Part shown: positions 35,373 through 36,434 of the stretch, one piece after another | How the letters are laid out: each line of letters opens with the position of its first letter | Position numbering within the stretch: position 1 is the stretch's first letter | Source of the DNA: an uncultured Flavobacteriales bacterium | GTDB lineage: Bacteria > Bacteroidota > Bacteroidia > Palsa-965 | Direction: 5' to 3' | Assembly (NCBI GenBank): GCA_903873905.1 | Contig: CAIQQJ010000145.1 | Location: 10,439 to 74,438, forward strand | DNA length: 64,000 bases | Position numbers and translations under genes: made by a program | Notes under the pieces: generated by a model | Seen by the model: the letters and a program-made list of their open reading frames with translations, nothing else | Told to the model about the DNA's origin: nothing | Databases searched by the model: none

Positions 35373-35488
35373 AATGTCCTTAGTGGATTTTTTTGATTTT
35401 CAGGATATTTGGGTGTGATTAATGTTCCCAATACAGTGCAAATCAGTGATTCGCCAAAAAATCAAGGAATTATTTGACTAACGTTTTT

Positions 35489-35510
35489 TCCCGAAGGGAC
35501 CACCCTGTGG
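35489..35510 (-). repeat. 22-nt double-hairpin insert, copy 1 (inverted)
   Basis: TCCCGAAGGGACCACCCTGTGG is the reverse complement of CCACAGGGTGGTCCCTTCGGGA; absent from the intact repeat copy. Confidence 0.95.
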
Positions 35511-35540
35511 TAATACGATCTGTTTATTATTTTTGCGACG

Positions 35541-35562
35541 CCACATAGTGGTCCCTTCGGGA
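35541..35562 (+). repeat. 22-nt double-hairpin insert, copy 2 (loop variant ATA)
   Basis: CCACATAGTGGTCCCTTCGGGA between tRNA G1 and G2 of the duplicated fragment. Confidence 0.95.
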
Positions 35563-35597
35563 GAGAAATGGCAGAGTGGTCGATCGCGGTAGTCTTG

Positions 35598-35619
35598 CCA
35601 CAGGGTGGTCCCTTCGGGA
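35598..35619 (+). repeat. 22-nt double-hairpin insert, copy 3
   Basis: CCACAGGGTGGTCCCTTCGGGA inside the anticodon (TG^A) of the duplicated fragment. Confidence 0.95.
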
Positions 35620-35652
35620 AAAACTATTGACTGTAACAATAAATTTTATTTT

Positions 35653-35895
35653 ATGTTTTTTACATATATCCTGTTAAGCAAGGTGGATGGGAAATATTAT
35701 TATGGAAGTTGTGCTAATATTGAAATAAGGTTGAAGGCCCATAACAGTGGTAAAGTTCGATCAACAAAAGGACGTCGGCCACTTGTGCTACATTACCAAG
35801 AATCCTTTGACACAAAATCTGACGCAATAAGACGAGAAAACTTTTTTAAATCCATTGACGGCTATAATTGGCTAAAAAATCAAGGAATTATTTGA
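35653..35895 (+). CDS. Small GIY-YIG nuclease (UPF0213/YhbQ/Slx1-like), 80 aa
   Basis: FTYIL.S....YYYGS.....RL..HNSG....TK.RRP....E.F.....A..RE...K pattern; ATG at 35653. Confidence 0.92.
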   Translation: MFFTYILLSKVDGKYYYGSCANIEIRLKAHNSGKVRSTKGRRPLVLHYQESFDTKSDAIRRENFFKSIDGYNWLKNQGII

Positions 35896-35923
35896 CTAAC
35901 GTTTTTTAATACGATCTGTTTAT

Positions 35924-35931
35924 TACTTTTG
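35924..35931 (+). promoter_or_regulatory. -7 box TACTTTTG of tRNA-Ser
   Basis: TAnnTTTG 5 bp upstream of the tRNA. Confidence 0.7.
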
Positions 35932-35935
35932 CGAC

Positions 35936-36020
35936 GGAGAAATGGCAGAGTGGTCGATCGCGGTAGTCTTGAAAACTATTGACTGTAATAGGTCCGGGGG
36001 TTCGAATCCCTCTTTCTCCG
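35936..36020 (+). tRNA. tRNA-Ser (anticodon TGA), CCA not encoded
   Basis: Acceptor stem GGAGAAA/TTTCTCC; D arm GCAGAGTGGTCGATCGC; anticodon arm GTAGT-CTTGAAA-ACTAT; long variable arm; GGGGG-TTCGAAT-CCCTC; discriminator G. Confidence 0.97.
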
Positions 36021-36026
36021 CGGAAT

Positions 36027-36072
36027 AAATGAAAAATCCTTTGAACTCGAGAGTTTAAAGGATTTTTCATTT
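36027..36072. terminator. Long hairpin, probable terminator after tRNA-Ser
   Basis: AAATGAAAAATCCTTTGAACTC-GA-GAGTTTAAAGGATTTTTCATTT. Confidence 0.75.
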
Positions 36073-36161
36073 TAAGACTTTTTGATCACAAAATTGCTCG
36101 ATTAGAAAAAACCCCCTCTTTTCAGAAGGGATTTTCATTAAACAGGATACTTAAATTCCAT

Positions 36162-36434
36162 TTAATTCGCGGACTTCAAAAACTCGACAATTTTATCCGT
36201 TTCCATTTTTGTAAGATTGGCACGATCCTGCATGTGTAATCCAATCGTTTTCCATTGTTCGTCGTTGAATTCGGTTGGAGAAGGTCCATTATGACAGCGG
36301 ATGCAATTTTCCGCCCAAAGTTGTGCGCCAGATTTGGCTTCAACAATCTGTTTTGCAGATGAACAACCTTGAGCAATTATGATTGTCATCAAAAGAGAAA
36401 ACAGAAATCCAATTATATATTTTGATTTTTTCAT
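36162..36434 (-). CDS. Small monoheme cytochrome c lipoprotein
   Basis: Lipobox AQGC; GAQLWAENCIRCH; distal HM. Confidence 0.88.
   Translation of the reverse strand: MKKSKYIIGFLFSLLMTIIIAQGCSSAKQIVEAKSGAQLWAENCIRCHNGPSPTEFNDEQWKTIGLHMQDRANLTKMETDKIVEFLKSAN

Follow-up and report, generated by a model that had tools for sequence, protein, structure and literature searches.

The described systems that come closest to the element considered here are the free-standing homing endonuclease genes of the GIY-YIG superfamily. Phage T4 encodes one such enzyme, SegB, within a tRNA gene cluster, and Paquin and Lang reportedly described a GIY-YIG homing element of Allomyces macrogynus mitochondria, atp6-ORF360, that brings a replacement gene piece. 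Here we describe a locus of comparable plan in a 64-kb stretch of DNA from an uncultured Flavobacteriales bacterium (GenBank assembly GCA_903873905.1, contig CAIQQJ010000145.1, positions 10,439 to 74,438 of the forward strand; this whole stretch is hereafter the window), in which a small GIY-YIG open reading frame (ORF) lies between an intact tRNA-Ser(TGA) gene and an upstream partial copy of that gene. With a probability of about one half, we regard the region as a minimal GIY-YIG cassette that resides in a tRNA operon and is selfish in the manner of homing endonuclease genes. With free-standing GIY-YIG homing genes it shares a nuclease ORF beside or in an essential gene, a carried substitute that leaves the displaced part behind as a pseudo-fragment, and intact, decayed and lost states among relatives. 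Small double-hairpin repeats in the same genomes are a further likeness to the homing genes of fungal mitochondria, double-hairpin elements of which are mentioned in PMC2800124. A bare catalytic domain of 80 amino acids (aa), residence in bacterial chromosomes, tRNA targets of many isotypes, tandem arrays and a regular loading of pseudo-tRNA loops with hairpins set it apart from the known analogues. A literature search, with subscription journals and supplements mostly outside its coverage, found no description of bacterial tRNA-linked small GIY-YIG genes.

The source genome (G000) is a 3.9-Mb draft in 181 contigs with 33 tRNA genes. Only one of these lies in the window, the tRNA-Ser(TGA) gene on the forward strand at 35936–36021 (ARAGORN and Rfam, with the 3' end at 36020/21; 52.3 bits), which is single-copy in the assembly and the sole gene there with a TGA anticodon. 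Window positions 35449–35636 are an upstream copy of 35867–35988, the forward-strand right repeat, which comprises the last nine codons and stop of the GIY-YIG ORF, the tRNA promoter (−7 box at 35924–35931) and tRNA-Ser nucleotides (nt) 1–53. Once three inserts are removed, the repeat core (35456–35636 against 35874–35988) is identical at 114 of 115 positions, and its single mismatch falls within the −7 promoter box, where the TAnnTTTG motif, which we take to be the Bacteroidota promoter consensus, survives. The repeat extends leftward by 7 nt, to 35449 and 35867 respectively, with 5/7 positions identical, and it is owing to this extension that the last nine codons and the stop of the nuclease ORF fall inside it. 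Between the repeats, whose starts are 418 bp apart, lies a unique stretch of 237 bp (35637–35873). A preliminary description of the window had recorded the near identity of the repeats apart from their inserts, the 237-bp unique stretch and the intact downstream tRNA, all of which we find as described. It had also characterized the unit between the repeats as almost only the nuclease ORF, with no integrase, transposase or reverse transcriptase; in agreement with this, a Pfam search of the ORFs of the element and its neighbours found no integrase, other recombinase, transposase or reverse transcriptase.

Three copies of a single 22-nt unit, hereafter the double-hairpin (DH) repeat, interrupt the upstream copy. 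All parts of the locus lie on the forward strand except the first of these inserts. From the left, the upstream copy begins with a segment (35449–35489, 95% identical) that copies the last ~30 nt of the GIY ORF, with two mismatches in the first 7 nt, and the pre-promoter region. It is followed by the inverted DH insert 1 (35490–35511, reverse strand, boundary ±1 nt), which occupies the −33 promoter region, and by a second segment (35512–35540) that carries the promoter copy (−7 box at 35528–35535), holds the single core mismatch and ends at tRNA nt 1. DH insert 2 (35541–35562), the commonest variant in the genome, sits between tRNA nt 1 and 2; pseudo-tRNA-Ser nt 2–36 (35563–35597) are identical to the intact gene at 35/35 positions; DH insert 3 (35598–35619) lies in the anticodon loop at nt 36/37, a position that matches tRNA-Ser pseudo-copies of other genomes and phyla; and pseudo-tRNA-Ser nt 37–53 (35620–35636), 17/17 identical, end in the variable arm. 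A 16-nt, A+T-rich leader (35637–35652) precedes the ATG of the UPF0213-type nuclease ORF (35653–35895; 243 nt, 80 aa and a stop), and a terminator-like hairpin with 22-nt arms, 95% complementary, stands 3' of the intact tRNA (36027–36072). The 15-nt core of the inserts occurs three times in the window against 0.03 expected, a count that 0 of 100 shuffles reached. Being without a T arm and a 3' acceptor strand, the pseudo-copy cannot take a tRNA fold. It adjoins the native DsbA side of the locus, and a comparison of the upstream window DNA with the ORF found no GIY remnant upstream of 35449. Ordinary chromosomal genes surround the locus; they encode an FMN reductase, the DsbA-like protein, two cytochromes c and an M4 peptidase that bears a sorting tail for type IX secretion.

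Integrase-driven tRNA islands usually duplicate the 3' part of the tRNA. They are like the present locus in their tRNA target, in a direct repeat that holds part of the tRNA and in the restoration of an intact tRNA. The att duplication of such an island, or else an assembly artefact, could be proposed, given that tRNA genes are classic island targets and that the genome is a draft in many contigs, but we hold both to be extremely improbable. The distance between repeat starts is small, no recombinase is encoded there or among the neighbours, the cargo is one 243-nt ORF, the duplicated portion is the 5' part with the promoter, and the junctions are not fixed but vary among relatives. As for the assembly, the stretch is present in 20 listed lake or freshwater metagenome runs from eight studies, and four of 24 listed runs (X1, X7, X14 and X17) were examined via Logan contigs. 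Short contigs of X1 span the unique junctions at 35460–35592 and 35568–35903, a contig of X14 spans 35568–35903 only, and one 448-nt contig of X7 spans 35456–35903, in each case with 0 differences and at a depth close to that of the flanks. The best-holding run may be the sample of origin; three studies agree. The repeat arrangement is not an assembly duplication, a prospect for which the preliminary description had allowed. Presence/absence polymorphism within the species was not seen in the four runs. Run X17, of low depth, has no cover of 35710–35925, and its contigs diverge at 35657, just inside the GIY ORF; a 335-nt joint of this run connects 35599 to 35935 with a shorter side of 31 nt. 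These contigs may stem from a variant strain or from another organism, and the run was left unused; a joint of 35564 to 36391 with a side of 18–20 nt was ignored as probably spurious.

By its sequence matches, the ORF product is a stand-alone member of the GIY-YIG superfamily of UPF0213 type. It matches PF01541 with 50.8 bits (cut-off 22.6; E 2.2e-13) over residues 1–66, and the closest solved proteins are the UPF0213 stand-alone GIY-YIG proteins 1ywl (EF2693; E 1.7e-7) and 1zg2 (BH0048; E 1.4e-5), over residues 3–68. These UPF0213/COG2827 proteins are of the same size class and domain; they come from structural genomics and bear names without an assigned function. NCBIfam gave only a sub-threshold match to a group I intron endonuclease (19.4 bits vs 56), and PADLOC gave no match for the window protein. 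An alignment of 20 relatives shows no variation at Y5, Y16, G18, R26, H30, E62 and K66, all of which the window protein has. The Y, Y-x-G, R, H and E of this set presumably correspond to the catalytic residues known from work on I-TevI and UvrC, and the ORF product is probably an active nuclease. A third small GIY-YIG gene of this genome (L011, G000:C15:15576-17702) has no tRNA near it and carries a different repeat of ~90 nt (GACTGAGTAGCCGAC...) on both sides.

Genes of this kind are widespread and tied to tRNA genes. A search with the window protein matched 28 of 41 related genomes at E 1e-5, among them 18 of the 24 of the genus, and with a 20-member profile matches at E 1e-10 were found in 187 of 301 sampled Bacteroidota genomes (62%; genomes at least 90% complete) and in 106 of 144 genera. 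Close relatives also occur in metagenome-assembled genomes (MAGs) from Bacteroidia, Flavobacteriales, Saprospiraceae, Ignavibacteriaceae, Melioribacteraceae, Balneolaceae, Neomarinimicrobiota, Saganbacteria and Patescibacteria. A re-scan of loci, from which nine repeated loci were dropped, left 85 loci with 125 GIY matches, the window locus included. An intact tRNA gene lay at most 500 nt away from 78 of the 125 matches, always on the same strand (78/78), and 65 of the 85 loci held such a pair; in one set of loci a tRNA was present in 22 of 32. Chance adjacency would be ~1% by our own estimate from ~40 tRNAs in 4 Mb. The linked tRNAs were Ser in 46 of 78 cases and Ala and Arg in nine each, and the spacing could be very tight, with the ATG 1–10 nt past a tRNA 3' end in 12 matches and the stop 0–10 nt before a tRNA 5' end in seven.

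A partial copy of the neighbouring tRNA was found in 47 of the 65 tRNA-linked loci. Many of the pseudo-copies span the whole tRNA and have inserts in the loops only, or have another hairpin in place of the anticodon arm (L047, L050, L116, L118). Tandem arrays could be long: L117 (G111:C2:364300-369156) holds 14 near-identical 299-bp units and reaches the contig end, each unit consisting of a small GIY-YIG ORF and a 3' tRNA fragment with a GGCGCC-TCT-GGCGCC hairpin, the ATG standing 2–3 nt past the tRNA-like 3' end, and L118, at tRNA-Asn, holds five full GIY copies at 382-bp spacing and a truncated sixth. The survey outcome expected in the preliminary description was borne out, in that small GIY-YIG genes with duplicated tRNA fragments on their flanks are common, as are tandem arrays of such genes; the interpretation given there is, as a whole, partly supported. 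On a tree of the GIY genes that has few columns and many unresolved forks, GIY lineages are shown to track the tRNA isotype: Ser required 10 changes against 29.3 when shuffled and Arg 4 against 7.8, with 0 of 500 shuffles as low in either case. A group of 53 rows (85/80, weakly supported and drawn unresolved) contains 38 Ser-linked rows and spans Bacteroidota, Ignavibacteriota and Fidelibacterota.

The wide distribution and conserved catalytic residues, the strand that is always shared, a start or stop codon that is frequently no more than 10 nt from the end of a tRNA, and the many full-length, loop-insert or arm-swapped pseudo-copies, which would keep a tRNA-like fold and prevent decoding, could together suggest a domesticated structure-specific nuclease, retained in tRNA operons either for its expression or to maintain heavily transcribed tRNA genes, in which case the pseudo-copies would act as RNase P/Z 'punctuation' signals that release the mRNA. 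We consider this decidedly unlikely. The pseudo-copy of the window cannot fold as a tRNA, the pseudogenes, truncations and losses described below and arrays of 14 units are atypical of a housekeeping gene, and 114 of the 301 sampled genomes are without a match at E 1e-10.

Two layouts recur among the loci. In layout A a pseudo-5'-copy is followed by the GIY gene and the intact tRNA; the window has this order, and so do the Ser(GGA) loci L035, L059 and L037. In layout B the order is intact tRNA, terminator, GIY gene and pseudo-3'-copy, as in L032 (genome G018), L033 (genome G012), L036 and the tandem pair L034. Duplication of the 5' part, which the preliminary description had stressed, is true of the window but is one of two common layouts, and the closest relatives of the window gene duplicate the 3' part. 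Because the window GIY groups with the layout-B genes of G012 and G018 (bootstrap 100, SH-aLRT 75–76, fork not starred), layouts A and B are alternative outcomes in one lineage. G012 is unpublished; on it rest the layout-B locus L033 (inserts in anticodon and T loops), the identity of a 22-mer with two Ignavibacteriaceae MAGs, two rows in alignments A2 and A3, one tree row, a motif count of 21 and a DsbA locus without a tRNA (L018), and each general statement involving this genome is also backed by other genomes.

The layout-B locus of G018 is informative as to which copy is the resident one. There, it is the pseudo-copy (score 118) and not the intact tRNA (score 23) that precedes the downstream flank homologous to the GIY-less locus G019:C2, and the terminator of the intact tRNA differs from the native one. 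Flank and terminator together imply that the foreign DNA in G018 is the block of tRNA 3' part, terminator and GIY gene, and that the resident 3' part was displaced. As far as these alignments go, the flank arrangement is shown to follow the logic of elements that carry a substitute for a displaced gene part.

States of the tRNA-Ser(TGA) locus within the genus range from an intact cassette (window, G018, G012) through an in-frame stop in the GIY gene (G023), a truncated GIY (G006) and a GIY that lacks its 5' part and immediately precedes promoter and tRNA, no duplication being detected (G022), to GIY-less loci with scars (G019:C2, G008:C24). By analogy, these intact, decayed and GIY-less states resemble the life cycle of homing endonuclease genes. 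Comparison with close relatives for an empty site had been proposed in the preliminary description, and GIY-less syntenic sites do exist in two congeners, although neither is pristine. These two are also the only ones, of six located congener orthologues of the DsbA gene, in which DsbA is followed by the tRNA as in the window. G019:C2 retains a block of ~20 nt that aligns with the end of the GIY ORF, and G008:C24 has, past the terminator, a degenerate tRNA fragment of nt 54–84 (25/31 identity; score 29 vs a shuffle maximum of 22). An A-rich block resembling the GIY 3' end precedes the promoter in all six aligned congener loci, those of layout B included, and on its sequence it may be either a scar of past occupancy or a native element into which the ORF reads. 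Among 80 metagenome loci retrieved with the DsbA-like neighbour (59–72% identity) none had a GIY gene, one had a tRNA (Met), and none provided a closer empty site.

Considered by itself, the window would look alike after entry of a cassette and after a local tandem duplication with later loss of the first GIY copy. The second of these histories would be that of an old, vertically inherited GIY-tRNA operon in which [GIY + promoter + tRNA 1–53] was doubled in place by slippage or unequal crossing-over and the first GIY deleted save its last 30 nt, the nuclease having no part in spread. We think this unlikely. Tandem arrays of like units are common, the GIY remnant of G022 stands at the corresponding position in a locus where no duplication was detected, the block resembling the GIY 3' end stands upstream of tRNA-Ser(TGA) in six of six aligned congener loci, partial tRNA copies occur at other tRNAs that have no GIY gene, and a family found in 62% of the sampled genomes of the phylum hardly appears in phage or plasmid records. 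On the other hand, two steps are needed and the deleted GIY 5' part has left no trace; the non-native terminator of the intact tRNA in G018 implies foreign insertion there rather than duplication of the resident; the genus shows a patchy occupancy, its genes being intact, broken or lost; and the 14 near-identical units of L117 point to active amplification.

The preliminary description had taken the near identity of the repeats to imply a recent event. This does not follow, since pseudo-copies in very divergent lineages are 95–100% identical to their own neighbouring tRNA while sharing insert positions. The near identity of such repeats is, judging from these comparisons, at least as well explained by gene conversion or repeated re-creation as by youth, and it is not a reliable clock. 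This is also a warning for annotation, as near-identical tRNA-fragment repeats should not be used to date an insertion as recent.

Under the cassette interpretation, the mobile unit would consist of the 80-aa nuclease gene and a replacement piece of the host tRNA gene, here the promoter and nt 1–53. On entry or duplication at tRNA-Ser(TGA), the resident promoter and 5' part would be pushed upstream to the DsbA flank, where they would become a redundant pseudo-copy, and the sole essential tRNA would be rebuilt downstream of the nuclease. The preliminary description had reported that the tRNA promoter is duplicated and had considered transcription of the nuclease from it, and the −7 box upstream of the ORF is indeed intact. 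With the −7 box kept, the −33 region replaced by insert 1 and no terminator between ORF and tRNA, the nuclease is probably transcribed from the displaced tRNA promoter, with read-through into the tRNA. Spread of the cassette and growth of arrays would most likely proceed via recombination through conserved tRNA sequence, to which nuclease cuts in GIY-free alleles might add a stimulus; spread may be by nuclease-stimulated recombination or by plain duplication. The nick-driven duplication and the integration of a small circle that the preliminary description had inferred would be candidate routes.

Several observations weigh against this interpretation. The 85 loci are the best matches to a Ser-dominated profile, kin included, and their counts are not independent trials. 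The junctions of the partial copies vary, at nt 33–80 for 5' copies and nt 13–59 for 3' copies, with no precise insertion site. The gene family is almost absent from the phage and plasmid collections, each of which gave one weak match, and neither supplies a vector. No RNA run with the locus is among the 24 listed. Known homing enzymes use an added DNA-binding domain for long targets, and the 80-aa protein is a catalytic domain only, with the DNA-binding module absent. Unless the enzyme recognizes a sequence that crosses a junction, it would also have a target in the intact tRNA next to its gene. No pristine GIY-less site was found among the congeners examined, both GIY-less sites being scarred. 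The GIY remnant upstream of the tRNA in G022, with no duplication detected, fits old vertical residence; the preliminary description had set vertical carriage of the nuclease without a duplication against its own reading, and this is partly what G022 presents, with a GIY gene that is truncated and a residence that may be old. Finally, five of the 33 tRNA genes of the source genome have nearby partial copies, and a GIY gene lies between only at Ser(TGA). Four tRNA genes whose partial copies, hairpin-bearing or plain, have no GIY gene between or beside them imply that pseudo-tRNA formation need not require a cassette, though some of these copies stand at contig ends, where a lost or unassembled GIY is possible.

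If the cassette interpretation is correct, most sampled Bacteroidota carry an undescribed class of minimal selfish cassettes, made of a bare nuclease domain and a borrowed piece of tRNA, which would show how small a homing-type element can be. Such cassettes would account for many of the genes annotated as 'GIY-YIG family protein' and for unannotated tRNA fragments in Bacteroidota genomes, and they would offer a natural system for how essential single-copy tRNA genes survive invasion.

The inserts in the pseudo-copy were present in the preliminary description, which overlooked that they are a dispersed structured repeat. The DH unit is made of two adjacent hairpins, each with a 4-bp, G+C-rich stem and a 3-nt loop, and its form is alike on both strands. 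Perfect copies number 45 in the genome against 2–4 in five block shuffles, and the 15-nt core with at most one mismatch occurs 26 times against 0 for the reversed control. Across 17 different 22-mers from pseudo-tRNA-Ser copies of many genomes, stem pairing holds in 97.1% of cells vs 78.0% when shuffled, 25 cells have changed on both sides vs 6.5 shuffled, and six of eight pairs covary (0 of 500 shuffles as high); pairing collapses to 23–57% in slid controls. A single DH folded as DNA gives the two-hairpin structure at a weak z of −0.7 to −1.6, so that the structure is supported by covariation, not by folding energy. On the pattern of its occurrences, the DH is a dispersed mini-repeat, similar to REP elements and small dispersed repeats (SDRs), that is separate from the cassette.

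The DH is preceded by TG in 19 of 37 distinct flank contexts vs ~14% expected, RAA(A) often follows, and the anticodon loop of tRNA-Ser (...YTNG|AAA) fits this context. Among 56 inserts of at least 15 nt in tRNA-Ser pseudo-copies, 25 lie in the anticodon loop, 15 in the T loop, 12 in the D-arm region and four elsewhere; those of the anticodon loop are always at 36|37 (ARAGORN numbering) and those of the T loop within a few nt of each other. One identical 22-mer occupies 36|37 in G012, a member of the Bacteroidota, and in two Ignavibacteriaceae MAGs. The DH prefers ...TG|RAA-type sites, which the tRNA-Ser anticodon loop offers. We suggest that DHs build up in the redundant copy since a hit in the sole tRNA-Ser(TGA) gene would presumably be lethal; as tRNA-Ser(TGA) is single-copy, a DH would persist in the redundant copy only. 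Inactivation of the pseudo-copy would be a side effect. The inserts also split the 122-nt homology into blocks of 41, 29, 35 and 17 nt. Recombination depends on homology length, and split homology should lower deletion by repeat recombination, but blocks of 50–71 nt persist at other loci, so that this can be only part of the explanation.

Inserts 1 and 3 are inverted with respect to each other, and the AGG loop variant of insert 1 is, among the genome's copies, common only to insert 3. Together with their flanks (35485–35623) they pair into a 29-bp stem around the displaced promoter and tRNA nt 1–36; as RNA the stem folds at −76.8 kcal/mol (z −8.2), and no U-tract follows it.

Hairpins of other kinds occupy the pseudo-tRNAs of other isotypes. 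Ala-type loci have TCCCG-N8-CGGGA hairpins, and Arg and Met loci have 27- or 61-nt CCCGCCCG-type hairpins. Within one genome, G008, double hairpins of 20–21 nt occur at Ser(GGA) and a 61-nt CCCGCCCG-type hairpin at Arg(CCT), so hairpin type follows GIY/tRNA type there. At the Arg(CCT) loci L040 and L060 (G001 and G008), which belong to a different GIY clade, one or two 61-nt CCCGCCCG...CGGGCGGG hairpins lie past D-loop nt 17; these are far larger than the Ser-type inserts and occupy an equivalent position.

Such regularities could mean that nuclease and hairpins are one system. The hairpins would then be mobilized or left by the enzyme, as REP elements are in relation to RAYTs, or would be an immunity or anti-deletion device under selection. 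In its mobile form, nuclease and GC-rich hairpins would make up a two-part system that targets tRNA genes, RAYT/REP-like but built on a GIY-YIG enzyme: the nuclease would nick the exposed anticodon, T or D loops of tRNA-gene DNA, with the hairpins as the moved DNA or as footprints, and the system, common to Bacteroidota, Ignavibacteriota and neighbouring phyla, would generate tRNA-like pseudo-genes and tandem arrays. The concentration of three DHs in 188 bp beside the gene, against 45 perfect copies in the 3.9-Mb genome, would be expected from this, as would the 52 of 56 inserts of tRNA-Ser pseudo-copies in the anticodon loop, T loop or D-arm region, the agreement of hairpin type with GIY/tRNA type even inside G008, the identical 22-mer at 36|37 in G012 and the Ignavibacteriaceae MAGs, and a form identical on the two strands, which would suit a dimeric enzyme. 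Even so, we judge it unlikely, both as a two-part mobile system and in its other forms. Most DH copies lie in Flavo-1-like repeats far from any GIY gene, DH-bearing pseudo-tRNAs without a GIY gene exist, and two of the window's three inserts are outside tRNA loops. Counts of TCCCTTYGGGA across 41 relatives showed no clear relation to the presence of a Ser-type GIY; G021, with distant GIY paralogues only, has 25 and G008 has one. More conventional hairpin movers are also at hand in three homologues of a Y1 transposase, one of them flanked by TCCC-N4-GGGA hairpins.

These homologues (PF01797, RAYT/IS200-like) have other hairpins in their flanks, not the DH. The one at L126:1-300 (G000:C137) is preceded by repeated TCCC-GTTA-GGGA and TCCC-TTTA-GGGA hairpins, which are DH-like but distinct; the others are on C23 and C106, and that on C106 is flanked by GTGTCGGGTC...GACCCGACAC hairpins.

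Small dispersed repeats of cyanobacteria are said to have been described by Elhai in 2008. The DH is like these, like REP/REPIN-RAYT elements and like mitochondrial hairpin elements in being short, palindromic and dispersed, and in its insertion without target duplication into conserved sequence, repeats and RNA genes included (for REP- and hairpin-type mini-repeats, see PMC2800124 and PMC3116915). It differs in having two adjacent hairpins, in its strong enrichment in pseudo-tRNA loops, and in that the Y1 homologues of the genome are flanked by other hairpins. The DH would be among the smallest structured mobile repeats, and its target preference, together with the read-out that pseudo-tRNA loops provide, makes the movement of mini-repeats directly testable.

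Partial tRNA copies with hairpins but without a GIY gene were observed at three further tRNA genes of the source genome. At Arg(TCT) (L122:31-109 and L125, at the start of G000:C62 and the end of G000:C89), tandem 5' pseudo-copies stand directly upstream of the intact gene with no GIY between. Every copy has its promoter and carries a DH in the anticodon loop, and the array splits the assembly into two contigs. At Arg(CCG) (L124, G000:C66:36750-37250, minus strand), the intact gene is directly preceded by a 5' pseudo-copy whose D loop contains a DH, with no GIY near. At Cys (L123, G000:C66:21250-21750, minus strand) there is a 3' pseudo-copy that includes the terminator, in which the anticodon arm is replaced by a 20-nt TCCCAACAG...GTTGGGA hairpin of a kind also present in Flavo-1-like repeats.

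The commonest carrier of the DH in the genome resembles the Rfam motif Flavo-1 (RF01705). Copies of the repeat without a DH score 29.2 and 26.8 bits, below the gathering threshold of 42, and we therefore speak of a resemblance only; the DH itself is an extra 22 nt relative to the motif. Seventeen aligned copies of the commonest DH variant sit in this Flavo-1-like repeat at one fixed site, between AGTAGTG and GAAAGCC, and the remaining DH copies lie in other contexts. Flavo-1 has no known function according to PMC2864571, and in Flavobacterium psychrophilum its matches lie in the sense or antisense of transcribed regions or outside them, according to PMC9723704. The Flavo-1-like family of the source genome (L001:1494-1515 and 16 other G000 sites) consists of mosaic repeats of ~150–200 nt whose hairpin modules are interchangeable, most copies carrying the DH at one fixed internal site; in appearance the family is closer to a BIME-type mosaic repeat than to a conventional small RNA gene.

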